Assembly: GCA_048938005.1 (NCBI GenBank)
Contig: JBHLMQ010000041.1
Location: 1 to 27,536 of the forward strand
Source of the DNA: Promethearchaeota archaeon
Lineage (GTDB): Archaea > Asgardarchaeota > Lokiarchaeia > Sigyniarchaeales > SOKP01
Direction of reading: 5' to 3'
DNA: 27,536 nt
Part shown: positions 6,465 through 27,536 of the stretch, in pieces
Layout of the letters: the number at the start of each line of letters is the position of its first letter
How positions within the stretch are numbered: position 1 is the first letter of the stretch
The notes under the pieces: generated by a model
The model's input: only the letters and a program-made list of their open reading frames with translations
Database searches by the model: none
Told to the model about the DNA's origin: nothing
Translations under genes and position numbers: made by a program

Positions 6465-6562
6465 AATATACTCAAATCTTTTCTTTTTATTTTATTAAAA
6501 AATTAAGTGGTTGATGCCCCTAACTTCAAATTCTAACAACTCTGAAAAAAAAAAAAAAGTAG
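6282..6562 (+). repeat. Left copy of a 281-bp diverged direct repeat
   Basis: Aligns end to end with 9267-9547 (offset 2985). It covers the last 60 codons and stop of 3579-6464, the spacer, and a remnant of the start of the 9496-10128 gene. Confidence 0.95.
6545..6558 (-). terminator. T14 run, candidate terminator of the fibre gene
   Basis: A14 on the + strand, about 24 nt downstream of the 6582 stop on the - strand. Confidence 0.45.
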
Positions 6563-6581
6563 TAATTTTAATTAAATATTT

Positions 6582-9547: not shown

Positions 9548-10128
9548 CACATCAGAACACTATCCAATTGTTACATCATATTATCAATTACTTAACAGAA
9601 TTTGAAAATCATTACGGAAAAAAATTTAATGTGTCCAAATTAGCTGGATTGTTAGGGCTCTCTAATGGAGAAATTGATGAAATAGTCTCTTTATTATTGA
9701 ATTTTCAAGAAATATTTACAGGTGTCTTTAAAAACTATAAATTAAAGAAAATCAGGGCAGGAAATCAATTGTATTTAATCTGTATTAAGAAAGAATGGAT
9801 GGCCTCAAAAGAAATAGAAATTCCTGAAATTGTCAGATTTTCCACCTCACAGCTTAAATTATTTAATGATATTATTTATGTATTTAAATTTGTTAAAAGA
9901 GGTAAGGGATTTGATGTATCTAAGAATGGCTCTGACCTCCTAACTAATATTAGACGGCTAAGAACAGAGCATCCATGTTTATTTACATCACATGATTACG
10001 GAATTATTTACCCCTCTGAATTTGGATTAAAATTAGGGGAATTAATCATCTCTTACAACAAAAGTAATAAGGAAATCAAGGAATTAACGGTAGATAATTG
10101 TATAATTGAGGTTCTAAAAGATGGGTGA
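9496..10128 (+). CDS. Hypothetical protein with probable winged-helix/HTH domain(s)
   Basis: 210-aa ORF with the HTH-like segment FNVSKLAGLLGLSNGEIDEIV. It overlaps the Hef start by 8 nt. The start is TTG 9496 or ATG 9499. Confidence 0.65.
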   Translation: MMTLTSNSGNSEKKSKVAHQNTIQLLHHIINYLTEFENHYGKKFNVSKLAGLLGLSNGEIDEIVSLLLNFQEIFTGVFKNYKLKKIRAGNQLYLICIKKEWMASKEIEIPEIVRFSTSQLKLFNDIIYVFKFVKRGKGFDVSKNGSDLLTNIRRLRTEHPCLFTSHDYGIIYPSEFGLKLGELIISYNKSNKEIKELTVDNCIIEVLKDG

Positions 10129-12286
10129 AATAAAAGAAGATATTGCAGAAAATTCCTCGATTTTGAATTCACATAAACTTGAAGTTAGAGAATACCAAGT
10201 AAAGATTGCTGAAGAATGTATAACCAAGAATTCATTGGTCGTGTTGCCTACTGGTCTTGGAAAGACTATAATTGCCGTATTAGTCGCAAGGAAGATATTG
10301 GAATTATTCCCCCCGAATAGTAAGATAATCGTACTTGCTCCGACAAGACCATTAATAAACCAACATTATGAGACTTTTGTGAGATATTTAAAGATACCTG
10401 AGGAAAAATTCGCAATTCTAACAGGTAAAATTCTTCCTGAAAAAAGAATTGATATTTTTAATCATCATCAAATCCTTTTTTACACTCCACAGACTTTAAG
10501 AAATGATTTAGTAAACAAAAAGTATACATTACAAAATACTGCACTTGTCATTTTTGATGAGGCTCATCACGCCTCTGGAGATTATGCTTATACTCTAATT
10601 TCCGATGAGTATATCGATCACAATCCAGATGGTATCACACTTGGATTAACTGCATCACCAGGAGCATCAAAGAAAAAAATTATTGAATTATGTAAAAACT
10701 TGCATATTCCAACAAAAAATATTCATATTAGGACTCGAAAGGATGAAGATGTTAAAACATACCTTAAACCGATGGATATCTACAAAATAGGAGTCGACCT
10801 AACAAGTTTGATGGAGGATGTGTACCAAATAATTACGCTTGTATTAGAGGAACGTCTACATTACCTCTCTCAAATGAATTTCCTAGAAGCGAAAGGCGAA
10901 CATTTACATACAAAGGTGATTCGAAAAGATTTGCTTAAATTGAATGGTGAGTTAGTAAATATTCTAAAAAGCAATGGAGATAAAACAGGAGTGTACAGTG
11001 CGCTCTCTATAAATGCTCAAGGGCTTATTTTATACCATATGCTAGAATTGGTAGAACAGCAGGGATTAGATGTTCTATTAAATTATTTAGAAAAGCTTAA
11101 CAAAGACGCAAAAAAGAAAAGTAGTTCAAAAGCAACGAAAATTTTAGTCTCAGATGGTCGTATCCATAGAATATATTTAGAACTAAAGAAAAATCTAGAA
11201 TTTTCTCCTGAGAACTTAATTCATCCTAAATATCAAGTTCTGATTAAAATTATTCTAGACGAAATACGCAATAATCCATCATCACGAATTTTGGTATTTG
11301 TGAAACTAAGGAACTCTGTTAAGAACATAACCAAGAAATTAAAAGAAATTTCTTTAATTAAACCGGTTCGATTTGTAGGACAAGCAACCAAATCGGAAGA
11401 TGATAAGGGTCTATCTCAAACACGTCAAATAGAGATTTTAGATCAATTTAAAGATGGTCAATATAATGTGCTTGTGTCTACGAATGTAGGTGAAGAGGGT
11501 TTAGACATCGCAGAGTGCGATTTGGTCATATTCTATGATGTTGTTGCTTCAGAGATTAGATTAATACAACGCAAAGGGAGAACTGCTCGTCATCGCGAAG
11601 GAAAAGTCGTCATATTATACGGTAAAGGGACTCGAGATGAGATATATTTGAAAATTACGTTGAATAAATTAAAAAGAATGAATGTAAACTTAAGGAACCC
11701 TCAACAATTAAAAGATTCCTATAATATTCAAGATTATAAAAAAGATAAAGTGCTTATACCTGATCATTCTACTTCTGGTGATGAGATGGAAATTAGAACA
11801 GTAATTCCATTAGATAAATCAAATCCAAAGAGAATTGTAAAAAAGCAATATCAATCAAGGCTTCAGAAATTCATTGATGTGAAACAAGAAGAGATTATAA
11901 GTCCTATTAAAATAAGTAAATTTATCCCAATGAAATTTGGGCTGAGAAAAAAACTTCAGAATGAAAGAATCTCATTTGATATAGCAGAATCTGACCTTCA
12001 TATTGTTGTTCATAATAAAGTGCTCATCCAAATTTATAATCCAGAAGGAATCGATTTTGATGAATTGCTTGCTGAAATAAATGATTTTAGGCAGATTTCT
12101 TCACTTGTTATCATAACATTAGATTTTATCGACTTTAGAGAGAAAATAGAGGGTGAAAAAAGAATTCTAAAACGTAAGATTCATGAATTTGCGAAAGAAC
12201 ATAATTTTCAAGCTATTGCAATTGATAATGAAGAAGAGCTATATTTTATTGTGAAAAATATTGTAGAAAGTCCGTATAGGGAGTGA
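10121..12286 (+). CDS. hef: Hef/FANCM/Mph1-family DEAH helicase with degenerate C-terminal ERCC4-like domain
   Basis: REYQ Q-motif, LPTGLGKT, LAPTRPLINQH, TPQT, DEAHHASGDYAY, GLTASPG, RFVGQA, TNVGEEGLDI and QRKGRTAR. Confidence 0.92.
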   Translation: MGEIKEDIAENSSILNSHKLEVREYQVKIAEECITKNSLVVLPTGLGKTIIAVLVARKILELFPPNSKIIVLAPTRPLINQHYETFVRYLKIPEEKFAILTGKILPEKRIDIFNHHQILFYTPQTLRNDLVNKKYTLQNTALVIFDEAHHASGDYAYTLISDEYIDHNPDGITLGLTASPGASKKKIIELCKNLHIPTKNIHIRTRKDEDVKTYLKPMDIYKIGVDLTSLMEDVYQIITLVLEERLHYLSQMNFLEAKGEHLHTKVIRKDLLKLNGELVNILKSNGDKTGVYSALSINAQGLILYHMLELVEQQGLDVLLNYLEKLNKDAKKKSSSKATKILVSDGRIHRIYLELKKNLEFSPENLIHPKYQVLIKIILDEIRNNPSSRILVFVKLRNSVKNITKKLKEISLIKPVRFVGQATKSEDDKGLSQTRQIEILDQFKDGQYNVLVSTNVGEEGLDIAECDLVIFYDVVASEIRLIQRKGRTARHREGKVVILYGKGTRDEIYLKITLNKLKRMNVNLRNPQQLKDSYNIQDYKKDKVLIPDHSTSGDEMEIRTVIPLDKSNPKRIVKKQYQSRLQKFIDVKQEEIISPIKISKFIPMKFGLRKKLQNERISFDIAESDLHIVVHNKVLIQIYNPEGIDFDELLAEINDFRQISSLVIITLDFIDFREKIEGEKRILKRKIHEFAKEHNFQAIAIDNEEELYFIVKNIVESPYRE

Positions 12287-12292
12287 TAGAGA

Positions 12293-12826
12293 ATGGAAGA
12301 GATTGCGTGGAAAACAGATAAGACTCCATATTTAGTGTTCCCATGTTCGAAATGTAAACAATACACCTATGCAAAAACTACGCGAAAAACTAAAAAATGT
12401 ACTCGATGCGGTAGGTCGCATATTGTAAGTAAAATTCTGAGTATTGGAGAAATTGTAAACGGCATTTCAGTAGCTGTAGAATTAGTAAAAAAAAGACAAG
12501 ATGAGTTAGCAATTAAAGAATTAGGTACTTCACCTGAATTTAGAACTATCAATGATTTTGCAATACTAAAATCAGTTAAGGGTAAAAGTCATAAAAAAGA
12601 AATTTTAGATAAAGAAGATAATGAGGAACAATACTACTCTAAATTCAAGCACATACTTATTGAGTTATCCAATATGTATTCGAAGTTTCCCTTCTATATT
12701 CTTGAAATGATGGCTGAAAATTATAACATCCCAAGCTCTGAAGTTAAACTGCTGGCAAACACTTTTCAGAAGCAGGGAATATTAATTAAGTTAGATGATA
12801 ACTTGTATCAGGTAAACATTGAATAA
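12293..12826 (+). CDS. Zn-ribbon (DUF1922-like) protein with C-terminal winged-helix-like domain
   Basis: YLVFPCSKCKQYTYA...KKCTRCGR. The C-terminus (FQKQGILIKLDDNLY) looks like a wHTH wing. It starts 6 nt after hef, behind a GGAGTGA SD-like motif. Confidence 0.7.
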   Translation: MEEIAWKTDKTPYLVFPCSKCKQYTYAKTTRKTKKCTRCGRSHIVSKILSIGEIVNGISVAVELVKKRQDELAIKELGTSPEFRTINDFAILKSVKGKSHKKEILDKEDNEEQYYSKFKHILIELSNMYSKFPFYILEMMAENYNIPSSEVKLLANTFQKQGILIKLDDNLYQVNIE

Positions 12827-14745: not shown

Positions 14746-15024
14746 TTATTTATTTTCATCTTGCTCCCTTAATTTTTTAAGATAAAGCTTCATGAAATAT
14801 CGTTCGCTATTACAGAACTCTAGTTTTTGCTTTTTGGAAAGGTTAAAGCAATTCAATAAAATTGCATGGATTTTCTTAAGGGTAGTTAGATTCTCATCGC
14901 ACAATTCTTCAATATTCTCATCTATTAATTCAATAGATTTCTTTTTTTGGCTTAATAGATTTCTTGATGGTGATTCTGTTCTTTGAATTTTACTATAAAT
15001 TTCTTTTTTACTCTTAGAATTCAT
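14746..15024 (-). CDS. Small helical hypothetical protein coupled to the Hel308-like gene
   Basis: 92-aa ORF with an ATGA overlap on the helicase stop. Confidence 0.6.
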   Translation of the reverse strand: MNSKSKKEIYSKIQRTESPSRNLLSQKKKSIELIDENIEELCDENLTTLKKIHAILLNCFNLSKKQKLEFCNSERYFMKLYLKKLREQDENK

Positions 15025-17558
15025 TGTTTTTTATCTTTTTTTATGATTTTCTTACATAAATTTATCCCTAATCCCGTCTTTTGGTTTAGAACGTAAGGAT
15101 TCTCTTTCTTCACTTGAGTAGCGGTATGATACCCCGCATTATACAAGATTCGTGCTCTCACCCGCGCAACATCATTTAATCGTAGTACAAGATCGAATAG
15201 TTCTTCTCGAATTCCGTAATGCAATCGTATCTTTAATGTCTCGGACATCTCAGCCACTTTTGTCAACTTCTCTTGTAAATCAAAACCGTGTGTACTCAAG
15301 TTTCTCGCAATAATTCCAATAAATGTAATTATCCGTTCTAGATTATCTCTAACAGAAAAGAGGTCCCCTGCCATGATTTTGTATTTCTCTAATATTTGGT
15401 CAATCGGTTCCTCATCTGCCCACTCTAAAATTGGCTGGAGCATTTTATAATCTTTTACACGAAATTCTGATTTTAGAATATCAAACGATTCTTTAATTAG
15501 ATCTTGAAAATTATTAATTTCAATATTTTCAAGCTTATATCGGATTATTACACCAGAGACTGGATAAAGATACAATCTTATTATCAATTTTCCAAATTGA
15601 GAGCATTTAATTATTCCCTCATCGTCTTTCTTGATTAAACCTTTTTCGAATAAATATGAAAGAATATATTGATTCTTAACAGACTTAGGGATGATGGAAT
15701 CAACATATTTTTGAAAGTTGATATCGGGTAGTTGGATCAAATACAATAGAAATGAGGTTATATGATCGCAGAATTCAAAGGAAAACTCATCATATACAAA
15801 ATTATCGGATATCTTATTCTGAAATCCGCAAGTACAATGAATTCCTGTTTCAATATCAAACTGACAAAAGTAGACCCCATAAGAAGTCTTTACATAGCCA
15901 GAGATATTAGATTCATTGAATTTAGTTAGTTTTATAGAAAAATTGCTCTCTTCTAACAATTTTACCTTCTTTGCATCGGCATGAAGTTTTAAAATATTAA
16001 TTGGAGTAATTTCTTTTATCATTAATAGCTGTTCAATAGGAATCTTCTGCTCTTTCATTCTGTGTTTTATCCCATACCAAAAGTATGTCTTTTCGAAGAA
16101 TTGTTTTAGCTTCTCAAGTGTTATTTTCTTTTCTTCATAAATTCTCAACAACACCTGTTCTTTAAGTGTATTAATTTTATTTAACACTGAAGTTAAATCA
16201 TTATATCTCGGTATTAATTTTCCTTTAAGAGCCTGATTTTCAAAGAAATGATCCTCAACCCACATTTTTTCTTCTATATTTTGGGTTAAAATTATCCCAT
16301 ATCCGACTGAATCAAGCCCAGGGCGACCGGCTCTCCCTAAAATTTGGAATACTTCATTTGCAGAAAATGGTTTAAAGTACGAAAATCCATCCCCATTTTC
16401 ATGATACCCAGAGAAATTTTTGATATTATGACCAGATGTAATATATTTCTTAAAGTCCTTTAAAATAACTACACGGGCGGGTGTGTTTATACCGGCTGAT
16501 AATGTTGTGGTACAACTAATCACTTTAATAATTCGTTTTTTGAAATTATCCTCTATTAGTTTTCTTTCCTTTGGAAGCAATCCGGCATGATGGAATGCGA
16601 TTCCTGATTTAATAACCTTCTGCAAATCACGATGTCCACCCTTAATGGAGCTTAATCTTTTTTCCAATGATTTGCATACATTTGACTCATTATCTTCTAG
16701 AAACTTCTTTACAAGGTTTTTGAGATTTTCAGCTGATCGCTGTGCCCCTTTTCGCCTATTAACAAAAATAAGCACTTGCCCATTTTTTTTTAAAGTAAAT
16801 TTCACAAGTCTCTTAATGGCAGAATCCTTATTTTGCGTGACTTCAATTTTAAAATGGAGTGGTACAGGGCGATCATCCGATTTAATCAAGGTCGTTTTGT
16901 TTCCTAATGAAGATAACCAAGAATTGAAGAATTCTGGATTTGCAATTGTTGCTGATAAGCCGATTATTTGTGGATTATGTAAAAATTCATTTAACCGGAC
17001 AATTAAGGATTCTAATCTTGGTCCTCTTTCTGATTCGCTGAGAATATGAACCTCATCAATAATGACAGTGGAAATCTCAAAAATCCACTCTTTATCATAG
17101 AAATTCCTTAGTATTGAATCCATCTTTTCATAGGTAGTTACAATGAGATCTGCTTTTTCCAACTTAGAATCATCAACATCATAATCCCCAATCGATAACT
17201 CAACTTTTATTCCAAATCGGCTATAGCCTTTTTTAAAGTGAAAGTATTTTTCTGTGGCCAGTGCTTTATACGGAACTAAATAGATTGATTTGCCAAATTT
17301 TTGAAATAAATTATTAATAGCACATACTTCCCCAATTAATGTCTTTCCACTTCCAGAGGGAGCACATACCAAAAATGATTTCCTGAAAAATAGACCTTGT
17401 TTGATCGCATCTTTTTGAATTTCGCGTAATTGAAATATCCTTCCCTCGAAAAGCACACGTAGAATGCGCTTATCAAAAATGAATTTAAATATTTCCTTAT
17501 CAAGATTATTATCCATATTTTTTCTTTTAATTTTATCTGTAAAATCTGTTAACGTCAT
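15021..17558 (-). CDS. hel308: Ski2-like Hel308/HelQ DNA helicase with SWIM zinc-finger insertion
   Basis: APSGSGKT, VPYKALATEK, TTYEKMD, DEVH, RGPRLE, GLSATIAN, RPVPL, FHHAGL, TTTLSAGINTPA, QILGRAGRPGLD and C-terminal ARVRARILYNAG. Internal CTC-x19-CDH motif. Confidence 0.9.
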   Translation of the reverse strand: MTLTDFTDKIKRKNMDNNLDKEIFKFIFDKRILRVLFEGRIFQLREIQKDAIKQGLFFRKSFLVCAPSGSGKTLIGEVCAINNLFQKFGKSIYLVPYKALATEKYFHFKKGYSRFGIKVELSIGDYDVDDSKLEKADLIVTTYEKMDSILRNFYDKEWIFEISTVIIDEVHILSESERGPRLESLIVRLNEFLHNPQIIGLSATIANPEFFNSWLSSLGNKTTLIKSDDRPVPLHFKIEVTQNKDSAIKRLVKFTLKKNGQVLIFVNRRKGAQRSAENLKNLVKKFLEDNESNVCKSLEKRLSSIKGGHRDLQKVIKSGIAFHHAGLLPKERKLIEDNFKKRIIKVISCTTTLSAGINTPARVVILKDFKKYITSGHNIKNFSGYHENGDGFSYFKPFSANEVFQILGRAGRPGLDSVGYGIILTQNIEEKMWVEDHFFENQALKGKLIPRYNDLTSVLNKINTLKEQVLLRIYEEKKITLEKLKQFFEKTYFWYGIKHRMKEQKIPIEQLLMIKEITPINILKLHADAKKVKLLEESNFSIKLTKFNESNISGYVKTSYGVYFCQFDIETGIHCTCGFQNKISDNFVYDEFSFEFCDHITSFLLYLIQLPDINFQKYVDSIIPKSVKNQYILSYLFEKGLIKKDDEGIIKCSQFGKLIIRLYLYPVSGVIIRYKLENIEINNFQDLIKESFDILKSEFRVKDYKMLQPILEWADEEPIDQILEKYKIMAGDLFSVRDNLERIITFIGIIARNLSTHGFDLQEKLTKVAEMSETLKIRLHYGIREELFDLVLRLNDVARVRARILYNAGYHTATQVKKENPYVLNQKTGLGINLCKKIIKKDKKQ

Positions 17559-17573
17559 TAGTTAACACCTATA

Positions 17574-17879
17574 TTAATATGGGTTTGTCCATTTTTTCAT
17601 TAATTGGGCAAAGGTTTGCGAATCCCGGGAAATCTCTATACTCTTAATAACTCCTATATTTCTTACTTTTAATTCTGAATTAAGAAAACAAATTAGAGCA
17701 TGTATTGGCTCTCCGTGTAGATGAATGTGTGGAAAATAAATATTTGAATTTGGTTGATTTAAAATATTATACTCAACGCCAAGAACTATTATTTTTTTAC
17801 AGAATGGACAGATAACTTTTTGAGCCTTTTGTTTGACTTCCTTAACATCCCTAATTTTACCAAAAACGACGACGATTAT
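17574..17879 (-). CDS. Unannotated ~101-aa CxxC/His-rich putative metal-binding protein without a canonical start codon
   Basis: Hand translation: IIVVVFGKIRDVKEVKQKAQKVICPFCKKIIVLGVEYNILNQPNSNIYFPHIHLHGEPIHALICFLNSELKVRNIGVIKSIEISRDSQTFAQLMKKWTNPY*. GGAGTGAT precedes the ATA/ATC codons. The frame ends 15 nt before the helicase ATG. Confidence 0.7.
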   Translation of the reverse strand: MIVVVFGKIRDVKEVKQKAQKVICPFCKKIIVLGVEYNILNQPNSNIYFPHIHLHGEPIHALICFLNSELKVRNIGVIKSIEISRDSQTFAQLMKKWTNPY

Positions 17880-17995
17880 TTATCACTCCATTTTGCTAAT
17901 AAATATAGTACAAAATGACTTAATATAAAGGAAAAAAGCGTAATAAAAAGTTGATTTTGAATTTTTTTCTTTAAATATTAGTAATTTATTTTCAA

Positions 17996-20557
17996 ATGAT
18001 ACGCATGACGGATGCGCAAAATAGTCTTTTGCATAAAAAAAGAGATTTAAAATTTTACTATGAAATGGCACAAGAGGCATTTCAAGCAAATGATGTCAAT
18101 GAAGCGTTAAAAATATCTCAAAATGCTTTGCAAATTGCCCAATCTCAAAACGAGTCTAAATGGGTTCAAATATTTGACTCTTTCAATTCCCAATTACACC
18201 AAAAAGTTCCCTTATTAGCTTCTAGCCCTATCAAGGAGAATCTTACTGGTATAAAGGGGATTGGAGTGAAAGTAGCTGAAAGACTAATTAATGCTGGAAT
18301 TAAAACAATAAATGACTTAGCACATACTTCTGTACAAAAATTGGCGTCACTCGAAGGAATAGGAAAGGCAACCGCTCAAAGATTTATTGACAGTGCGAAA
18401 GAACGATTACATATGAAGAAATTAAATGGATTCTCAGGAAGATCGCAAATTAAGTTAGGAGATTCATTTAATTCCAAAAAGAGTTTCAAAGAATCTAAGC
18501 AAGTTGATTTAGATTACTCTGAATCTATAAAAATTAATTCCCATGAAAGAATGCCAAATTATATATTGACATTAAGTCCTTCCACGCCAATCGTGGTTGA
18601 TGGTTCAAATATAGCATGGATGGGTGGTGATAAAAAGAAAGGAGATATCCCAGAATTAAAATATTTAATCGAATTAAGGGAATACTTAATAAACATCGGA
18701 TTTAAAGAGATTACTATATTTTGCGACTTTGGGTTACCATATATAATTGACGAACGTAAAAAATTAGAGGATTTGATACAGAAGAAAATTATTTACCGAG
18801 CCCTGAAAGAAGGAAAAGAAGTAGATGATCATTATGTTCTTCAGTATGCTAAGAAAGTAAATGGTTATTTCATTGTTGAGTCTGAAAAATATAGTAATTG
18901 GTTTAATAGGGGATATGATGAAGATTGGATTAAGGAAAGAAGAATAACAGCACGATATGTGAAAGGCGAATTTCTATTAAAACCTATAATTGAAATCACT
19001 GAAGACTTTAAAGACCTTAAAAGTGAGTCCATAAAAGTTGATAAAAATGTCGATTACGAAGAAATTCACGAAATTGATATTCCTGAAAAAATTCATGAGA
19101 ATAATCCTCCAAAATCATTCCCTTGGTTTGATGGAAAGTACAATTATTCACGATTAGGAAAGAGTTATCCCAGAGGACAAGGATTAAAGATTATTGAACA
19201 AGATGAGGACTTCAATGAGAGTGATATAGAAGAAATTTCCAATGATCTAGAAGAAATCTCTGGTGATATAAAGGATGACGTAAAACAAGATTCTGCTGAT
19301 GGAAGTCTTGCTATACAATCTGAAATCCTACGTCAAAAAAATTTTGAATTAATTGAACGTGCTAAAGTTTCCAAAAAAATCTTGAATCATTCTCAAATAA
19401 AAGATATAACCACAGAAATCTCAAAGGAACTAGAATTATCTGAATTTTTCATTGTTAAACCTATACAAGAATTAAGAACAATACTTACAGGTATCGATCT
19501 TTTAGCAATACGACTCACAAAAGTACATGAATTCCTAGATTTAATATTTATTGTTCCAATTAAAATCTGTATGCTTACAGAGTCTCTCATCGTTTCGGAT
19601 ACTACTATGAGGTATCATTCAGTAGAAAATATTCCTGAAAACGACTATCATCTAGAGAAGTTGTTACAATCATATCTACAAGCACTCTCTAATTGTGGAC
19701 AGTTAGTTTATGAAGATATTGGAAAGGAAGGAGCGCTATTTAGATATATAACAAAATATTTACACTTAGATATTTCACTCGAAAAAACTTTTACTCATAA
19801 AAATCTCTTTTTTCGCTCAGGACCACTTCAGTTTAAAATTTTAGCCGAGCCGATTTTAGTGAGCCAAAGCAAAGTAGGATTTACAGAAAAACTCATTCCG
19901 TTTGCGTATCAAAAAAATTCAAACATCCACGTAGTAGAGATATTTCATTTATCCGATCTTTTGCAATATCTTGATCAGAAATATTTTCTTGTTGAGACTT
20001 ATAGCAAGAAGGAGAGCTCACTTGCGTTATACTGCAAAGCATCAAACAAATTTATGGAAGATTTAAGAAGAATTTCTGCTCCCTTTATGATCTATGGGGT
20101 GATCTTTTTGTTTATCTTTTTATTTCAGGAAGATTTCTTATTATTCTGGTTGGTCAATTTAGGTTATGGAGTAATTGCGTTTTATACCTTGATAGTTGGA
20201 TATCTCTATATAAGATTTTATCAACATAAAGTAGGACTTCAGAAAGAGTTTTCAACCCCATATTTTAAGAAAACATTCGATTTTGATGATACTGACCTTA
20301 TACTAATAAGGGAAGAGTTGAGTAAACCGTTTATGGCACAATTTACATACGAAATGCTAGGTAAAAATCCTAATTCGAAGGTTATTTCGGAACTTGAAAA
20401 GTATAATGCTGAAACATATCTTAAAACGAAAGAAAAAGAGAAAAAAGAAAGGGAGAACAATTCAATTTCGAAATTATTTGAACCAAAAACCCAACCTAAA
20501 AATTCAGAACTTAAGAACAAATTAGTAGAGAAATATAGCTCATTTTTGGAGGATTAA
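17996..20557 (+). CDS. Multidomain membrane protein: (HhH)2, NYN/PIN (Zc3h12a/Regnase-like) domain, acidic linker, alpha/beta domain, 2 TM helices
   Basis: LTGIKGIGVKVAERLINAGIKTINDLA...LEGIGKATAQRFI; PIVVDGSNIAW...IFCD...DDHYVLQYAKKVNGYFIV; TM hairpin near the C-terminus. Confidence 0.8.
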   Translation: MIRMTDAQNSLLHKKRDLKFYYEMAQEAFQANDVNEALKISQNALQIAQSQNESKWVQIFDSFNSQLHQKVPLLASSPIKENLTGIKGIGVKVAERLINAGIKTINDLAHTSVQKLASLEGIGKATAQRFIDSAKERLHMKKLNGFSGRSQIKLGDSFNSKKSFKESKQVDLDYSESIKINSHERMPNYILTLSPSTPIVVDGSNIAWMGGDKKKGDIPELKYLIELREYLINIGFKEITIFCDFGLPYIIDERKKLEDLIQKKIIYRALKEGKEVDDHYVLQYAKKVNGYFIVESEKYSNWFNRGYDEDWIKERRITARYVKGEFLLKPIIEITEDFKDLKSESIKVDKNVDYEEIHEIDIPEKIHENNPPKSFPWFDGKYNYSRLGKSYPRGQGLKIIEQDEDFNESDIEEISNDLEEISGDIKDDVKQDSADGSLAIQSEILRQKNFELIERAKVSKKILNHSQIKDITTEISKELELSEFFIVKPIQELRTILTGIDLLAIRLTKVHEFLDLIFIVPIKICMLTESLIVSDTTMRYHSVENIPENDYHLEKLLQSYLQALSNCGQLVYEDIGKEGALFRYITKYLHLDISLEKTFTHKNLFFRSGPLQFKILAEPILVSQSKVGFTEKLIPFAYQKNSNIHVVEIFHLSDLLQYLDQKYFLVETYSKKESSLALYCKASNKFMEDLRRISAPFMIYGVIFLFIFLFQEDFLLFWLVNLGYGVIAFYTLIVGYLYIRFYQHKVGLQKEFSTPYFKKTFDFDDTDLILIREELSKPFMAQFTYEMLGKNPNSKVISELEKYNAETYLKTKEKEKKERENNSISKLFEPKTQPKNSELKNKLVEKYSSFLED

Positions 20558-20560
20558 CAA

Positions 20561-21292
20561 ATGAAAGTTATGAAAAATCATATATTTAGAATAGCTTTTA
20601 TGATAGGATTAATTTTTCTATTCTTCTCTGTATTCTTGGAGTGGTATTGTTTTCAAATTTTTGATTTAGACAATGAGCTTATTGTTTCATGGAACTATAA
20701 TCTATTTTTCGGGTGGATGACCCCATTTTCTGGTGATTTTACTCTTAATGAGGCGATGAAACCGGAAAGTACTTCAATACCCTTAATGATTAATATCTTA
20801 TTTATAGGTTCAATCATCCTCTCTGGTTATGTGGTGCTTTTTAAAGACGTCAATCATGCCATAAACGTTAAGAATTACCATAAATATGCCTTTATCAACG
20901 GGTTTGCATTATTAATGGCGAGCTTTTATATAATTATTGCTCCCATAATGTATTTGATTCCTTATGAGCTTTATTTCCCTCTACTTAATATTGTGAATTA
21001 TGATGCGGGATTCGTGTCTTTATATGCAATTGGTCCGGGATATATTTTGCAATTCATCTCATTTCCATTAATATTTCCATATTCAGTCTTTTATTATCGA
21101 ACCATAACTATATTCAGACAAGAAGAACAGACTCCCGAGAAAATGGTGAACAATGTAATAAACAATGCTCAAGAACCGCTTGATTTAGATAAATTCATCG
21201 CTGAGGAAGAATTACGTCAAAAATTTGATACTCCTGAAGATGATATTAATAAGATAGTTTCAACATTTATAGAGGGGGATAGAAAAGTATGA
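20561..21292 (+). CDS. Four-TM membrane protein with acidic C-terminal tail
   Basis: Four hydrophobic segments. It starts 3 nt after the preceding stop, behind a GGAGGA SD-like motif. Confidence 0.75.
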   Translation: MKVMKNHIFRIAFMIGLIFLFFSVFLEWYCFQIFDLDNELIVSWNYNLFFGWMTPFSGDFTLNEAMKPESTSIPLMINILFIGSIILSGYVVLFKDVNHAINVKNYHKYAFINGFALLMASFYIIIAPIMYLIPYELYFPLLNIVNYDAGFVSLYAIGPGYILQFISFPLIFPYSVFYYRTITIFRQEEQTPEKMVNNVINNAQEPLDLDKFIAEEELRQKFDTPEDDINKIVSTFIEGDRKV

Positions 21293-22149
21293 ATTATTCT
21301 GTAGTAGATGCTAAATTAAAAAATTTAATTCAAGTGTGTAAACAGACAGAAAATTTCAAAAAGTTAGCAGTGGTCAGCTTCATTTTAACAAGTAATAAAG
21401 TAGATGAAATTGGGATTAAACTAGGAATTCGGCAACGTGATAGAGTATCAGGAGAAAAATTGTTCGAATATATGGAATTAATAAATGAAATCTTTAAAGC
21501 AAATTTGAAAATTTCAATCTTTCAAAATGATTATATTGAAGAAATAAGGGAATGCGAGCTTCTTTTTCTTAGGAATAAAGGTAATATTCCTTATGAACAC
21601 ATCAAGACCATGTTTCATATCTATTATGAATTAAGAAAGATTGAAGTACCAAATCTCCATAAAAGTCTAGAAGGTGATGAGTTTATAACATCATCACAGC
21701 TGGGAGCTATCTCATTTCTATCTCCAGGAAGGAGGCAAAAGCAAAAAGATTCTGGCACGTTAAAACCGTTAATTGTGCAAAAAATAAACGAAAGGCAAGT
21801 AGATTTACAACACAGTTTACAAAACAGATTGGATAGTCAGAAACTAGAGACTGCTATCTATTTACGTTCTATTAAAGATTCACTTCTTCATGATAAAAAA
21901 GGGAGAATCATGGTTCATGGAGCCCTAAAAGATAATCTACAATATCAAGGCTCGCTTGATAGTATATGGGGTTTCTTGATTATTGGTCTAATAGTATTGC
22001 TTGGTTCACTTGGGATTGTTATCCTAATCGAATTAAGCTTTATTCATATAATTTCAGGTGAATTAAACTCTTTAGTTCTATATCTGTTTGTGGCTACTGC
22101 TGTGTTGTTATTTGCTTATATAAGATATTATAGAAAGGGGCGGAAGTAG
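21289..22149 (+). CDS. Hypothetical protein: helical soluble domain plus C-terminal TM hairpin
   Basis: 286-aa ORF with an ATGA overlap on the upstream gene. Two terminal TM segments and a basic tail. Confidence 0.75.
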   Translation: MNYSVVDAKLKNLIQVCKQTENFKKLAVVSFILTSNKVDEIGIKLGIRQRDRVSGEKLFEYMELINEIFKANLKISIFQNDYIEEIRECELLFLRNKGNIPYEHIKTMFHIYYELRKIEVPNLHKSLEGDEFITSSQLGAISFLSPGRRQKQKDSGTLKPLIVQKINERQVDLQHSLQNRLDSQKLETAIYLRSIKDSLLHDKKGRIMVHGALKDNLQYQGSLDSIWGFLIIGLIVLLGSLGIVILIELSFIHIISGELNSLVLYLFVATAVLLFAYIRYYRKGRK

Positions 22150-22150
22150 T

Positions 22151-25100
22151 ATGGTTAAAAGCTATAATCCAGAAGATTTTACAAGAAGAGATAATTCTGA
22201 AACGAAAAGAAAAAGGAAAGTGTATATTGAAGAAACAGATGAAAAAGAATATTTGAAAATATGGGATGTTAATCCATCATTTAAAGATATCCATCGTAAT
22301 TTATCACTTGTAAAGACAATTTCATTGTTAGTTTTAGCATTTTTTATTATAATCTCTTACTATCTCCTCAGCGGACTTCTTATCTCTTCAATATTTCTTG
22401 GAGTAGTATGTGTTGGTGTATTTATTATAATTTTTAATGATGAAATTTATTTATTACGTTATTTCATTCCATTTACTTTTCGTAGTAAATTAAAGTTTAA
22501 TCCTTTCGAAGATCTTGTGTTCTGGTTTGAAGAAGATAATCCCTCAACATTATATATATCCAATAGGAAAGATCTAATTCATATTGCACTTCAGATATTT
22601 CAGGTTGATATAATCCCTGAAAATGTGAGTTCGGCAGTACATAAATTTGTAAGAACATTAAATACTAAAGATAAACGTTTATCATTTTCATACCAAATAG
22701 TTCAGAAGCCAATTATTCCCTTATTTAAAGAGCAAAGATCACGGGATACCATGCTTAAATCATTACAGTCAAGAGGAGCTAGTATATACTTCACGGTCTT
22801 TAACCTGGAAAAAGGGATTCTTTCTGAGCATAAAATCGACCGCCTAAAATATAATATAAAAAAAGATTCAAATGATCTAAAAAGCAACCTTGTGAGTAAT
22901 TTTCATCATTTTAGAGCGACACTTCTTTCAGACACCGCACTACTAAATGCAATTCGGGCAATATTTACAATACATGATATATGTCTCGATATAAAATCAG
23001 ATAAAAAAGAAGCATTGAAAGGCAATAATTATCATACAATTGCAAAATTAGGCTTCTGTACCCTACTTATTTTATACATTGATGTTGTACTCTTTTTCTT
23101 GGGAATATTTATTCTGTACATCCTTATTGTTAATCTTGGGGTTACAATTTCATTAATTTTTATATGGTGGAGATCAATATTATTTCAATTGACAAAGGCA
23201 AAATTGCTACGACATGATAATGTTATCACTGTAAACCCCTTTAAAAATATTGATTTTTATCGTATTAAGAAGCATCCTTACAGCTTATTTCTCCATATAG
23301 ATAATCAATTTGTAATTGGGATGAAAATGGTAAACCTCAGATATGTATATCAGGCTCCTTATTGCTCGTTGAGTAAGTTCATTGAAAGTCTAAATAACCA
23401 TAAAGTCCATTTTAGCTATACATTAAAAAATAGGCCATTACACCCGTATGAGTTTTATAACCATGGATTAGATTTTCTAAATGAAAAACAAAAAGAGTTG
23501 CTTCTAAAAAGAGAAGTTACCAGATCTAAAAAAGAAGTTCAATGGGAAAAATGGTTAGGGTATCGCTCTGGAATGTGGGATAGTATGTTAATCATGTCGG
23601 TATATACATATACCTTTATTAATTTAATTAAACCTGATACATTTGAAAATTTAGAAGATGAACTAAATGAAAAGATTGAGGCTCTTAAAGGAGCATTTAA
23701 AATCAATTTTTATGGATATCATATTGAAGATATAAGTTCTACTAAGTTAATTTCGGGTTATCTTTTTACCAGCATAAAAAATAACCTTTTTAGACTAAAT
23801 GGGACTCATCTTAATTACGTCATGCTACAGGGCGCAAGAATGTATTCACTTTCTGATGTGGTAGATATCCTTAAAAAAGGTGTTGAAGCAAAAATCGCTG
23901 CTGAATTTAACACACCCCTCTATTTAGAAAATTTTATTACACTCGGACATACAATAAATACTGAAGTATGGGAGAGAGAAGTTCCTTTAGGATTCACAAA
24001 TGATCAATTGAAGAATTTACTCATTGTAAATGGCACTTCGCAAAAGAGAGATGCCTTATGCATGAAAATTGTCGCAGAGTTAATAAAAGCAAAAGTTCCT
24101 TCCCTCATTTTTGATTTTGATGGAACATGGTCTAAATTAATAAAATATTTTCACAATACGCGTTTTGAAGATGAAATTTTATATTTCAAATATGGGAGTG
24201 CCTTTACCATCGATCCATTAACTTCGGATATCCTATATGATACGAAAAATACAAGTTATCTAGAATATTTGTATGATGCATTTGGAATTGCATTTAAAAA
24301 AGATGATAGAACGGTAGAAATGTTCCGAAATACGATATTAAGCCATCCGGGAATGGATCTTGGTGCAATTCGAATGGCATTGCAAAATCAAAGTGAATGG
24401 GAGAAAAGTCCTATCAATAATTTACTGCTTTCATTATTCTCAGATTTCACTCAAGATGATTTAACTTATTTTCAACCAGTCCAAAAAGATAGTATTACTA
24501 CTTCTAATTTCATCAAGACACACCAGACCATAATTATTGATCTCTCAATATTAAGAGAACTTAACAAGAAATTGTTTTTAACATTTGTACTTCTGGCAAA
24601 GATCATCCATTATAGTACCACAGCAGAGAATTATTATGAAAAGATTATTTTTATTCCATTTATTGATAGCTTCTTTGATGCATATTACATAAATCTGAAA
24701 AGAAATTACGATAAAGTTGATCTTTTTTTAAGACCACTTATAGAAAAGGGTTTCGGACTTATTTTTACAGCAAATCAAGTTAATTATCTCCATGCGAATA
24801 TGATGCTCTATTTTAATAATATTATTGCGTTAAGAGCAACAGATATACGAGATATTGCGATGCTACGAAATTTAATGAATCTACAGGAACTATATGGAAC
24901 AGGGTATTATACTTCCTCACGTAATAACACATATCAAATTGATTATCTTAAAAATATGAGGAACAATGAAGTGCTAATTCGAAGGGATGATATTTATCAA
25001 GCTTTTCCAGCACGAATAGACTGGGGAGAGATTCAAGAATTAAATCCTTTATCGCATGAAGAGATAGTTGCATTCATGAAAGTCCAGGGCTATGATATAC

Positions 25101-25963
25101 AATTTACCGAACGAAAAATACTGGATCAAGCACGTGAGACCTTATTTGAGATAGATTTAGGGCATTACTTCATTTATGTTGAAGAGATAATAAATTTCTT
25201 AGATTATGTACAAACTGTCGATCAGATCGGAAATCTCTATAGACAAAAATTAAAACAGGATTTGAAAGAATACCTGTATCCTAAGATCTCACAAAAGATA
25301 CAAAAGAAAGAGCATATGAAAAAGATTAGAGATAAAGTGTTAGACACCCTTATTAAACATGGATATTTAGTTGAAAACCATCCCAGAAGGGCAAGTGGTA
25401 CAGAAGCTCTAAGAACATCGTACTCTGTTGGAGAACGATACCAACAAGCGTTAGAAGATTATTATGAAGTGAAAGGGAAAACTCTCACAGATATTAACGT
25501 TGAGATATTAGAAAAAGGGACTAGACACCCTGATGATTTAAAACACATTTTTCAAGAACCCCCTCGGAAATATATTATTCAGCAAAATAATTTAAAAGAT
25601 GCGTTAATGCGTGAATTTAGCGATTTTAACTATGATATCTTTAAGATCTATATGTGTATCGACGAGGAAAATTATTCTGATGCGTTAAAAATAGAACATA
25701 AGTTAATTCAAACATATTTGATTAATGTATATCGGCAATTTCAAAATGTAACAACGATAAATATTGATAAATTCACTCAATTCTTATCTACGCTAGAAAA
25801 AGTCAAGGGATTTCCATTTACCACAGAAGGACTTATGGAATATATGAATAAATATGAAATTATAGAACTAGAACAAGGGAATCTGGAATCCTTAGCCAAA
25901 GAAATATATTACTTTATTTATGAGTTCTTTATTAAAATTCAGCATTATATTTATGGAGAATAA
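22151..25963 (+). CDS. Membrane-anchored VirB4/HerA/FtsK-like protein with degenerate Walker motifs
   Basis: Two TM-hairpin+domain units, then ITLGHT...VPLGF...LKNLLIVNGTSQKRD (Walker A position), SLIFDFDGTW, FTIDPL, TIIIDLS and GFGLIFTANQ. This is the motif order typical of HerA/VirB4 ATPases. Confidence 0.65.
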   Translation: MVKSYNPEDFTRRDNSETKRKRKVYIEETDEKEYLKIWDVNPSFKDIHRNLSLVKTISLLVLAFFIIISYYLLSGLLISSIFLGVVCVGVFIIIFNDEIYLLRYFIPFTFRSKLKFNPFEDLVFWFEEDNPSTLYISNRKDLIHIALQIFQVDIIPENVSSAVHKFVRTLNTKDKRLSFSYQIVQKPIIPLFKEQRSRDTMLKSLQSRGASIYFTVFNLEKGILSEHKIDRLKYNIKKDSNDLKSNLVSNFHHFRATLLSDTALLNAIRAIFTIHDICLDIKSDKKEALKGNNYHTIAKLGFCTLLILYIDVVLFFLGIFILYILIVNLGVTISLIFIWWRSILFQLTKAKLLRHDNVITVNPFKNIDFYRIKKHPYSLFLHIDNQFVIGMKMVNLRYVYQAPYCSLSKFIESLNNHKVHFSYTLKNRPLHPYEFYNHGLDFLNEKQKELLLKREVTRSKKEVQWEKWLGYRSGMWDSMLIMSVYTYTFINLIKPDTFENLEDELNEKIEALKGAFKINFYGYHIEDISSTKLISGYLFTSIKNNLFRLNGTHLNYVMLQGARMYSLSDVVDILKKGVEAKIAAEFNTPLYLENFITLGHTINTEVWEREVPLGFTNDQLKNLLIVNGTSQKRDALCMKIVAELIKAKVPSLIFDFDGTWSKLIKYFHNTRFEDEILYFKYGSAFTIDPLTSDILYDTKNTSYLEYLYDAFGIAFKKDDRTVEMFRNTILSHPGMDLGAIRMALQNQSEWEKSPINNLLLSLFSDFTQDDLTYFQPVQKDSITTSNFIKTHQTIIIDLSILRELNKKLFLTFVLLAKIIHYSTTAENYYEKIIFIPFIDSFFDAYYINLKRNYDKVDLFLRPLIEKGFGLIFTANQVNYLHANMMLYFNNIIALRATDIRDIAMLRNLMNLQELYGTGYYTSSRNNTYQIDYLKNMRNNEVLIRRDDIYQAFPARIDWGEIQELNPLSHEEIVAFMKVQGYDIQFTERKILDQARETLFEIDLGHYFIYVEEIINFLDYVQTVDQIGNLYRQKLKQDLKEYLYPKISQKIQKKEHMKKIRDKVLDTLIKHGYLVENHPRRASGTEALRTSYSVGERYQQALEDYYEVKGKTLTDINVEILEKGTRHPDDLKHIFQEPPRKYIIQQNNLKDALMREFSDFNYDIFKIYMCIDEENYSDALKIEHKLIQTYLINVYRQFQNVTTINIDKFTQFLSTLEKVKGFPFTTEGLMEYMNKYEIIELEQGNLESLAKEIYYFIYEFFIKIQHYIYGE

Positions 25964-25965
25964 TT

Positions 25966-26322
25966 ATGCAAAAAGAAAATAATCTTGAAGAAATGTTAGA
26001 AAAAATAGTATTTGATAAGGATAATCTAGCTATCTTAAAGACAGCTATTAATAAGGTAGATTCAGGAGAGATTTCATTGAAGGAATTAAGGCAACAGATC
26101 ATTGATCTTCGAGTACGACTGTTAGAGGGATTAATCAAATACATTCCATTCTATCTTAAGCAAACAACTACTAAGAAATCTTTAGTAGAATTTACTATGA
26201 ATAACACTAATAATCATCAATTAGAACAAGAATTAAAAGAGAGAAATGAACTTCTTGAAAAAGTCGGATCCCGTATTAATAGAATTTATGAAACGTTAAA
26301 AGATAAGGAGATCTCTGAATAA
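25966..26322 (+). CDS. Small coiled-coil hypothetical protein, last gene of the operon
   Basis: 118-aa ORF rich in L, E and K. It starts 2 nt after the previous stop. Confidence 0.7.
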   Translation: MQKENNLEEMLEKIVFDKDNLAILKTAINKVDSGEISLKELRQQIIDLRVRLLEGLIKYIPFYLKQTTTKKSLVEFTMNNTNNHQLEQELKERNELLEKVGSRINRIYETLKDKEISE

Positions 26323-26502: not shown

Positions 26503-27536
26503 ATGTTATCTGAAGACGTGATTTCAAATTCAACTGTGTCATTAAAGGAATTATTTCCTAGTTATACAAATCACTTTATTAAACCATTTGAGAAAGTAGT
26601 GGATCCTGATTTTCATAATGGGATGTGCCTTGATTTCGAACTGTGCGATAGAGACTCTAAGGAAAAAGTAAATCCAATACTTCGACTTGCTAGACCAGAA
26701 GATGGAGAAGAAATTGTCGAAATTTACAAGGAACTGTATAACGGTACATATCCATATAAAGAAATGGAAAATACGGATGAGGTTCGAAAGATGATAAAAG
26801 ATCCAACTATTCAATGGATTATTTATCAAGATCCTTCCTATAATTTAGCAGGATGCATAACATTTGTTTTAGATTTTGATAATAAACGGGGATATATTCG
26901 AGGATTTATGCTCAAAAAGAAGTATCAAGGATATGTTGATATTACAAAAGCGATGATTGGCTCAATGATAGGCATGATACATAAATTCGGAGATAAAATC
27001 TATACATGGTATGTAGAAAACAGAACTGCTCATTCAAAGTCTCAATATTCAATGTGTGTCTGCGGTATCGCTCCTATTGGATTTTATCCAAATAAGGATG
27101 TATTTTTAGGAAAAATAGAATCTGACTTAATGCAAATTTGCTACGATGAGAGAGCATTAAGAGAGTTTCGAACGAGAGCAATTCCAAAAATACTTCCACA
27201 AGTAGAAGAGTGTTATTTATATTCTGACAGGCGATATCAATTAGGAGATTATCACATTAAAGTCCCTGATATAAAATTAGATAGAAAAAAAGTTTCTCGA
27301 ATTAAGAAGAAACTTGTAAAAAATGTGGAGACCGATAAGTTTGGATATGAGAATATCAAGTTTAGCATTGCTAGTACAAAATCTTATTTTCAATTTTTAT
27401 ATACTTCACAGGTGCAAAATTTCGAAAAGACTAAATATAGAGTAAATAATCTTGAAGAACTATATGTTTTTGTTCAAGAATTTATCAAATGTGGAAAGGA
27501 ATTAGGAATTCGCTATTGTGAAGCATTTATTTCTGC
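26503..27536 (+). CDS. GNAT-family N-acetyltransferase, probably two-domain (3' end outside the window)
   Basis: Not in the ORF track. The frame is open from ATG 26503 to the window end: ...ILRLARPEDGEEIVEIYKELYNGTYPY...GYIRGFMLKKKYQG...WYVENRTAHSKSQ...PIGFYP. Confidence 0.75.
   Translation, partial: MLSEDVISNSTVSLKELFPSYTNHFIKPFEKVVDPDFHNGMCLDFELCDRDSKEKVNPILRLARPEDGEEIVEIYKELYNGTYPYKEMENTDEVRKMIKDPTIQWIIYQDPSYNLAGCITFVLDFDNKRGYIRGFMLKKKYQGYVDITKAMIGSMIGMIHKFGDKIYTWYVENRTAHSKSQYSMCVCGIAPIGFYPNKDVFLGKIESDLMQICYDERALREFRTRAIPKILPQVEECYLYSDRRYQLGDYHIKVPDIKLDRKKVSRIKKKLVKNVETDKFGYENIKFSIASTKSYFQFLYTSQVQNFEKTKYRVNNLEELYVFVQEFIKCGKELGIRYCEAFIS

Follow-up and report, generated by a model that had tools for sequence, protein, structure and literature searches.

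The DNA described here is a 27,536-nt window (the whole stretch analyzed, whose coordinates are used unless a locus is named) of contig JBHLMQ010000041.1 from a Promethearchaeota archaeon (Lokiarchaeia; Sigyniarchaeales; SOKP01; assembly GCA_048938005.1). Positions 17996–26322 hold an operon of five open reading frames (ORFs) on the + strand, with successive spacings of 3, −4, 1, and 2 nt. An earlier note on this DNA had reported these five co-oriented genes and their spacings, transmembrane (TM) helices in four of the products, and a divergent hel308, and all of this was confirmed. ORF1 (17996..20557, +; 853 aa) codes for a cytoplasmic (HhH)2 domain, an acidic linker, an alpha/beta domain, a TM hairpin, a C-terminal domain, and a terminal KYSSFLED peptide. 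ORF2 (20561..21292, +; 243 aa) is a small polytopic membrane protein with an acidic cytoplasmic tail. ORF3 (21289..22149, +; 286 aa) overlaps ORF2 by 4 nt and codes for a protein with a cytoplasmic domain of ~220 aa and a TM hairpin at its C-terminus. ORF4 (22151..25963, +; 1270 aa) is predicted to be a membrane-anchored pseudo-ATPase with a VirB4/HerA fold, and ORF5 (25966..26322, +; 118 aa) is a small, soluble, and probably helical protein. The divergent neighbor is a Hel308-type helicase (15021..17558, −; 845 aa; Pfam DEAD, Helicase_C, and Helicase_dom4_arc). The spacer between it and ORF1 (17559..17995), read directly, is 437 nt long and AT-rich. A TATA-like sequence, TTTAAATA, lies ~20 nt 5′ of the ORF1 start and reads as a candidate promoter element, and T-rich tracts occur 3′ of the ORF5 stop.

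Kyte-Doolittle scans, the source of the TM assignments given here, placed hydrophobic helices in four of the five proteins (ORF1–ORF4) and none in ORF5. Because no N-terminal signal-like segment precedes any large domain in ORF1–ORF5, nearly all of the protein mass should face the cytoplasm. Anchoring in every subunit is by hairpins or short helices, and hydropathy gave no large external domain. Within the operon span, the only other ORFs of at least 60 aa are antisense, and these lie inside the five genes except for one that overlaps the ORF1 start. The abutting genes leave no room within this span for a pilin gene of the VirB2/CedA1 type (two TM helices). ORFs and library scans of the window proteins revealed no VirB2, VirB6, VirD4, or relaxase genes near the operon. 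The locus was found in 18 DNA sequencing runs from seven studies (sediment, mangrove, and soil metagenomes).

Fold and nucleotide site of ORF4

Sequence searches of Pfam, NCBIfam, PADLOC, and the sequences of the PDB gave no relevant match to ORF4. The first three libraries returned only weak matches to MAGE and MukF_C at E ≤ 0.1, and a profile made from 63 aligned ORF4 sequences had 0 matches among PDB sequences. A word-indexed search recovered 182 relatives; among the matches listed, nearly all are ~1260–1300 aa long apart from partial records, and all named ones are hypothetical proteins from Asgard metagenome-assembled genomes (MAGs). An exhaustive profile search identified 271 cluster representatives at E ≤ 0.001 among 1.84 billion. 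No published description of the family was found among the papers listed in searches of the Asgard literature on VirB4, HerA, and Hel308 (titles and abstract starts).

An AlphaFold2 model of ORF4 aa 350–1270 was constructed from the 63-sequence alignment (mean predicted local distance difference test [pLDDT], 82.6; predicted template modeling score [pTM], 0.56). The top nine Foldseek matches in the PDB were all TrwK/VirB4 of plasmid R388 (E 5.2e-13 to 1.4e-10, 606–683 columns, probability 1.00), and the next was HerA (4d2i, E 2e-10). When the whole model was compared using VIA, TrwK/VirB4 chains covered model residues 14–633 (494 residues, Z 17.8), with a root-mean-square deviation (rmsd) of 13 because domain orientation differs. 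An alignment over this range indicates that the N-domain of ORF4 is probably VirB4-like too. Chains of HerA, whose own N-domain is a HAS-barrel, spanned model residues ~232–245 to 607–622, which is the P-loop domain only. For the P-loop-fold domain itself (aa 581–981, model 232–632; 23891..25093, +), VIA placed DndH-C (7es4) at Z 25.0, Thermoanaerobacter VirB4 (4ag5/4ag6) at Z 24.9 with 330 aligned residues and an rmsd of 4.0, Sulfolobus HerA (4d2i) at 24.2, and TrwB at ~22. The description of the 1270-aa protein as VirB4/HerA-like in the earlier note was thus borne out at the level of fold, by Foldseek and VIA on the predicted model, and found no sequence-level support in Pfam, NCBIfam, PADLOC, or the PDB. 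The modeling suggests that ORF4 is a descendant of a VirB4-type ATPase that is VirB4-like by fold only.

The domain build of ORF4 adds several elements to this fold. An N-terminal membrane module (22313..23185, +) has TM hairpins at aa 55–98 and 298–345 with a repeat domain between them. The protein contains an internal duplication in which aa 117–208 match aa 362–458 (BLASTP E 8e-6), the start of the VirB4-N-domain-like region (aa ~363–580; 23237..23890, +; VIA and Foldseek). A winged-helix-like region (aa ~1028–1096; 25232..25438, +) has a weak Pfam MAGE match (E 0.0089) and a helix-helix-strand-strand order in the model, and is followed by a helical C-terminal domain. One distant ORF4 relative has PadR/HTH_34 matches at the same position. 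ORF4 shares with VirB4/TrwK (8rtd, 7o42, 7o43, 8rtb; 4ag5/4ag6) an N-domain, a P-loop C-domain, and N-terminal membrane association. It differs in having four TM helices, a duplicated N-module, the additional winged-helix-like region, and helical C-terminal domains, in the loss of both Walker motifs described below, and in matching no VirB4 at the sequence level in Pfam or the PDB. FtsK/SpoIIIE also combines N-terminal TM helices, a RecA-like ring domain, and a C-terminal winged-helix-type domain, but the structural match (VIA Z 13.8, 6t8b/6t8o) is far below those to VirB4 and HerA, and ORF4 has a different N-domain and no ATP site.

The canonical Walker A motif, GxxxxGK[ST], is absent from all of the aligned ORF4 relatives (0/63). 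Its position is occupied by a degenerate motif, N-G-x4-R-[ED] (aa 627–634; 24029..24052, +), in which the N is present in 58/63 sequences, G628 and R633 in 63/63, and E/D634 in 60/63; K632 of the window protein is not conserved among the 63 relatives. Distant relatives of two sizes (~770–850 aa and ~1100–1300 aa) likewise lack Walker A. The strand equivalent to Walker B, as placed by a weak hhalign alignment, reads K-h-h-h-h-P-[HNYF]-I-D (aa 831–839; 24641..24667, +). P836 is found in 63/63 relatives and residue 837 is H, N, Y, or F. In this alignment of ORF4 to an intact HerA-like family (E 0.006, probability 6%), an ‘IDLS’ strand is shared and P836/F837 lie opposite the D-E of the intact proteins. 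These patterns indicate that ORF4 is probably not a motor and that its ATP site was swapped, throughout the family, for other strictly conserved residues. The substitute residues are conserved and median identity is ~42% over 1270 aa, which argues for a retained non-hydrolytic function and against decay.

ORF1 and the smaller subunits

The second protein with recognizable domains is ORF1. Its (HhH)2 domain (aa 81–136; 18236..18403, +) matches Pfam HHH_5 (PF14520) with E 1.3e-14 and 54.8 bits, against a cut-off of 27. The best NCBIfam matches to aa 81–143 are RadA models (E 1.4e-8), though with scores that fall far short of the cut-offs set for the full-length models, and the domain appears closest to the N-terminal domain of RadA. 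An orthologue set of 45 sequences (the window and 44 related loci) was used to assess conservation, and HHH_5 is present in 44 of them. A Zc3h12a-like NYN domain (aa 197–327; 18584..18976, +) matches PF11977 with E 9.3e-12 and a score of 45.4 bits (cut-off, 23). Its translation contains the acidic motifs ‘DGSN’ and ‘DD’, which are candidates for the catalytic residues. The co-occurrence of (HhH)2 and NYN in one protein had been seen earlier from the sequence and holds for ORF1, but the NYN domain occurs in only 2/45 orthologues (the window and locus L012) and is not a conserved part of the operon. A search with the NYN region in 5.8 billion proteins found the HhH and NYN architecture at ORF1 length in only four clusters. 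Because so few orthologues and clusters carry it, the NYN RNase is best read as a recent, lineage-specific insertion in the acidic linker of ORF1, and not as a core part.

The conserved parts of ORF1 are the (HhH)2 domain, a linker motif, a domain at ~aa 470–690, the TM hairpin, a small C-terminal domain, and the terminal peptide. The linker motif, ‘WFxDKFNYSRL’ (19118–19160, +), lies in the acidic linker, outside the folded domains. The TM hairpin (aa 696–737; 20081..20206, +) was identified by hydropathy and forms two long helices in the model. KYSSFLED, at the extreme C-terminus (20531..20554, +), is nearly invariant, with F850 and L851 at least 90% conserved in alignments. Both peptides are candidate docking peptides, judged by their conservation. 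A model of aa 455–853 is confident (pLDDT 88.2, pTM 0.79). Its best Foldseek match is MiD51 (E 0.18), and two VIA searches were dominated by matches to the long helical hairpin, with Z up to 10.4 and 8.5.

The remaining proteins are smaller. ORF2 has ~4 hydrophobic segments by hydropathy alone, and the C-terminal hairpin of ORF3 covers aa 228–280. ORF3 has one weak PADLOC match (E 0.0056), and no PADLOC model otherwise fits the five proteins; ORF3 had no usable match in the ESM Atlas. ORF5 is ~295–305 aa long in one subclade (L018–L024, L053, L057, and L061) and 111–160 aa long elsewhere, a difference that points to an extra domain fused to ORF5 in the long-ORF5 subclade.

We propose that the operon codes for a passive, cytoplasm-facing docking platform, derived from VirB4 and without ATPase activity, which would work with a tethered (HhH)2 subunit to keep nucleic acid at the membrane, a reading to which we give a probability of about one half. 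ORF1–ORF5 would form one membrane complex with its bulk on the cytoplasmic side. ORF4, held by its two TM hairpins, would be the organizing subunit and would act as a scaffold or ligand-binding ring instead of a motor, with ORF2, ORF3, and ORF5 as further subunits. In ORF1, a long acidic tether links the RadA-N-like (HhH)2 domain, a DNA-binding module, to the TM hairpin that anchors it, and in this lineage the NYN domain is inserted in the tether. The complex may capture or position nucleic acid on the cytoplasmic side of the membrane, a separate enzyme would supply the energy for translocation or unwinding, and the process served could be DNA exchange, DNA-membrane tethering, or conflict. The idea in the earlier note of a membrane machine for nucleic-acid transfer is thereby retained in part: a membrane complex related to nucleic acid is the best reading, and transfer driven by ATP hydrolysis in ORF4 itself falls away with the loss of its motor residues.

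Several points weigh against this proposal. HhH domains can mediate protein contacts as well, and because of this the link to nucleic acid comes down to domain identity alone. The Walker B assignment comes from a weak profile alignment, with the probability of 6% given above, and the residues that replace the ATP site might still bind nucleotide or another ligand. The confident model of ORF1 aa 455–853 has no informative structural match in Foldseek or VIA. ORF2, ORF3, and ORF5 belong to no family recognizable in Pfam, NCBIfam, PADLOC, or PDB sequences. A search of sequencing runs found no RNA runs with the locus.

Conservation and genomic context

A scan for the locus with one genome per species recovered 76 loci, all in Asgard MAG records. 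Ten of these hold a paralogue in another context, and the counts below come from the other 66, using only loci with enough flank; several MAGs give more than one locus and the rows are not independent. ORF3 precedes ORF4 in 55/57 loci, ORF2 in 55/56, and ORF1 in 51/53, and ORF5 follows ORF4 in 54/62. All four partners of ORF4 are found in order in 43/51 loci. The operon arrangement is not chance, and the genes are syntenic in relatives, a check that the earlier note had proposed.

Conservation extends beyond the operon. A divergent hel308 lies upstream in 34/37 loci and is missing in three (L039, L048, and L050). A GNAT-like gene lies downstream in 42/57 loci, with a median identity of 61%; Hel308 has a median identity of 74%, compared to 34%–44% for the operon. 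The downstream gene of the window (26503..27534, +; at least 344 aa) has its own TATA-like element and a weak GNAT match (Pfam E 0.0083, below the cut-off), and leaves the window. Upstream, the conserved block takes in two small genes and the genes for a DUF1922 protein and for a superfamily 2 (SF2) helicase that contains a helical-bundle domain. In the window, this second SF2 helicase (DEAD, Helicase_C, and RNA_helicase_helical bundle) is at 10121–12826 on the + strand and is followed by the DUF1922 zinc-ribbon protein, both of which are syntenic in many loci. Because the conserved block extends this far upstream, the adjacency to hel308 appears to be part of a longer vertically inherited region. 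The divergence from hel308 to which attention had been drawn is therefore a real adjacency, but one that belongs to this longer block and is lost in 3/37 loci. The Hel308 beside the operon is the sole close copy in the genome; the next match has 37% identity over 234 residues. This helicase also has a CxC...CxH cluster near aa 575–605 with the appearance of a small zinc finger.

The neighborhood and the RadA-like domain of ORF1 could be combined in a portal for DNA coupled to recombination, or in a DNA-membrane tether. ORF1 would mimic the N-domain of RadA, with an aromatic residue of the polymerization-motif type in many orthologues, and would work with Hel308 and deliver RadA-coated or incoming DNA to a motorless docking ring derived from VirB4. 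We consider this distinctly unlikely as it stands. Many ORF1 orthologues contain ‘KKLNGF’, to be compared to the ‘MGFKSA’ polymerization motif of the RadA of this genome. A complex prediction with the RadA core (aa 88–332) and ORF1 aa 72–172 had a score of 0.00; it gave no answer and speaks neither for nor against binding. RadA is encoded twice in the genome, once as a canonical protein of 332 aa (L086 1498–2496, −) and once as a protein of 421 aa (L085 1498–2763, −) with a cysteine-rich and acidic N-terminal extension.

We searched 400 genomes of the phylum for ORF4 and found matches at E ≤ 1e-10 in 127. Matches are present in 102/134 genomes of the GTDB family to which the window belongs. 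A second family in the same order has weak matches (E 1e-15 to 1e-43) in 9/14 genomes, one further family has matches in 6/6, and the remaining families of the phylum have none or few. The operon thus appears to be a property of one GTDB family and not of Asgard archaea as a whole, and the ‘Asgard’ scope first given to it was too broad, with strong matches concentrated in that family. Weak ORF4 homologues occur in other contexts (L081 and L082). In another Asgard family, a distant homologue is split into genes of 282 aa and 520 aa (L084 5223–11947), which are co-directional with radA, a gene whose product has an M28 peptidase domain, and an ORF of 150 aa. No ORF4 homologue was found in five genomes of the same family with completeness of 95%–99% (0/5). 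Of these, hel308 was not found in three and was cut by a contig end in one, and in the fifth the contig stops 1.3 kb beyond hel308, a stretch in which no start of ORF1 is visible. Because hel308 is missing or at a contig edge or the contig ends early, these five genomes do not amount to an established absence. In a genome of the same genus (L089, G192:C103), the 1.3 kb that separate hel308 from the contig end contain, at the expected place of ORF1 (6399–7315), one small ORF for a zinc-ribbon-like protein and another for a membrane protein of 86 aa.

A second ORF4-like gene, with 35%–40% identity, was identified in the same genome (contig C30) and in nine other loci. It belongs to a paralogous cluster (L083, contig C30, 770–11409; also L021, L025, L062–L065, L067, L070, L071, and L074). 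Members of the cluster code for a protein with a Cdc48 N-domain only, a TPR protein, a dead ORF4 paralogue, a membrane protein of 231 aa, a HerA-like ATPase, and a protein of 1400–1670 aa. The HerA-like ATPase (PF01935, E 2.8e-7) is intact: its Walker A motif reads GxxGxGK[TS], and its Walker B motif has the D-E pair. The 1400–1670-aa protein has TFIIB repeat and helix-turn-helix (HTH) matches in one case (L070). The 231-aa membrane protein (L021:13835–14530) has no Pfam match, but one of its hydrophobic segments contains an HExxH motif (‘HEFFH’), and in this it resembles an intramembrane metalloprotease. The cluster shows, in the same genome, that the ATP-dead scaffold is able to function next to an intact ATPase. 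Some copies of the ORF4 family are split or bear stops (one TAA, one TAG, or six stops; L025, L064, and L067, and G183:C23, G227:C14, and G177:C4), which suggests decaying copies or assembly errors.

The cluster also bears on a reading in which nucleic acid has no role, the operon codes for a platform that handles proteins or organizes membranes (secretion, quality control, or membrane shaping), and the HhH domains serve protein contacts. The Cdc48-N-domain, TPR, and HExxH membrane proteins suggest protein processing, the subunits of the operon are all cytoplasm-facing and anchored by TM hairpins, and ORF4 would be unable to translocate by ATP hydrolysis. We nevertheless hold this reading to be very unlikely, since the (HhH)2 domain in 44/45 orthologues is of the RadA/DNA-repair type, ORF4 has a winged-helix-like region, the same cluster contains TFIIB-repeat and HTH domains, and every solved relative of the ORF4 fold acts on DNA or in DNA/protein transfer.

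Two other features of the window lie apart from the operon. An ORF of 831 aa that matches phage tail collar and fn3 domains (6582–9077, −) is located in a stretch with a G+C content of 41%–42%, compared to ~30% elsewhere; it could be of foreign origin or code for a surface protein. A fragment of an NB-ARC/STAND-type NTPase gene (3–632, −) leaves the window at its start.

Relation to DNA transfer and defense systems

The earlier note had likened the operon to the Ced system, in which small membrane proteins are paired with a membrane-bound HerA/VirB4-like ATPase (CedB). Both Ced/Ted (CedA, CedA1, CedA2, CedB, and CedD) and the present locus are archaeal chromosomal membrane operons with small membrane proteins and a VirB4/HerA-like protein. 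The VirB4-like ATPase of Ced/Ted is thought to power import, alongside a VirB6-like channel of 6–7 TM helices and a VirB2-like pilin (PMC9905601); of these components, the present operon has only the VirB4-derived protein in common with Ced/Ted. Rearranged VirB4 N-domain modules are a further common feature, the VirB4 N-domain being divided between CedB and CedD in Sulfolobales (PMC11868833). The analogy to a CedB-like motor did not hold, as the 63 aligned relatives have neither the lysine motif of Walker A nor the D-E pair of Walker B, and the genes are packed too closely to accommodate a pilin gene. CedB is described as the power source (PMC9905601), whereas ORF4 appears ATP-dead. CedA has 6–7 TM helices (PMC9905601), compared to the ~4 segments that hydropathy gives for ORF2. 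The (HhH)2 partner has no named counterpart in the available portions of PMC9905601 and PMC11868833.

A conduit for DNA import or export of the Ced, Ted, or type IV secretion kind could still be built from these parts if the motor acted in trans. ORF2 and the TM hairpins would form the conduit, ORF4 the ring, and ORF1 the DNA receiver, with Hel308 or the HerA-like ATPase of the paralogous cluster as the motor. This fits the best structural relatives of ORF4, which are VirB4/TrwK with the N-domain included, and the occurrence of rearranged VirB4 modules in archaeal DNA import (CedB/CedD; PMC11868833). The RadA-like HhH of ORF1, the two helicases in the conserved neighborhood, the split ORF4 homologue beside radA in another Asgard family, and the pairing of a dead paralogue with an intact HerA-like ATPase in the same genome are also in its favor. 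We regard it as possible but doubtful, because the motor residues are absent family-wide, the operon has neither a pilin-like gene nor room for one, ORF2 has fewer segments by hydropathy than CedA, there is almost no extracellular mass, and the linkage to hel308 lies within the longer syntenic block and is absent in 3/37 loci.

Rings of the HerA family serve as scaffolds for nuclease effectors of the SIR2 and DUF4297 types. The P-loop fold of ORF4 is shared with SIR2-HerA (Nezha) and DUF4297-HerA (VIA Z 19.3–21.9) as well as with DndH-C, the top VIA match, and each system unites a ring with a nuclease-type domain. The operon could by this comparison be a membrane-bound conflict system, antiviral or anti-plasmid, in which a HerA-family ring is the sensor or scaffold for exchangeable nuclease effectors, here the NYN RNase of ORF1. 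The sporadic insertion of NYN resembles the behavior of an effector domain, and the existence of ORF4 paralogues, some broken by stops, is compatible with this. We judge it unlikely. The known rings are active and soluble, whereas ORF4 is dead and membrane-bound; 43/45 ORF1 orthologues have no recognizable nuclease, and an invariant or near-invariant Rx4–6H (HEPN) pair was not found in 38 aligned sequences of ORF3. PADLOC offers no fit beyond the weak ORF3 match, and a fixed chromosomal context with vertical inheritance through most genomes of the family is unlike a patchy defense island.

The platform that we prefer, a motorless VirB4 descendant with a tethered (HhH)2 subunit, gives the family an unusual place among its relatives. 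To our knowledge, no component of type IV secretion and conjugation other than VirB4 is universal, and its known role is that of a motor. In the present family, an entire clade retains the full VirB4 architecture, strongly conserved, with the ATP site apparently exchanged for other invariant residues, in a fixed operon with a membrane-anchored (HhH)2 protein of the DNA-binding type. Four of the five operon proteins have no described family. If the operon is a conflict system, it would add a membrane-bound branch to HerA-scaffolded defenses. A role in handling DNA at the membrane would instead bear on genome exchange, repair, or anchoring in these organisms. If a DNA portal or tether is what the operon encodes, it would be an archaeal counterpart of the transformation or mating apparatus, or of membrane-chromatin tethers, in the lineage closest to eukaryotes.

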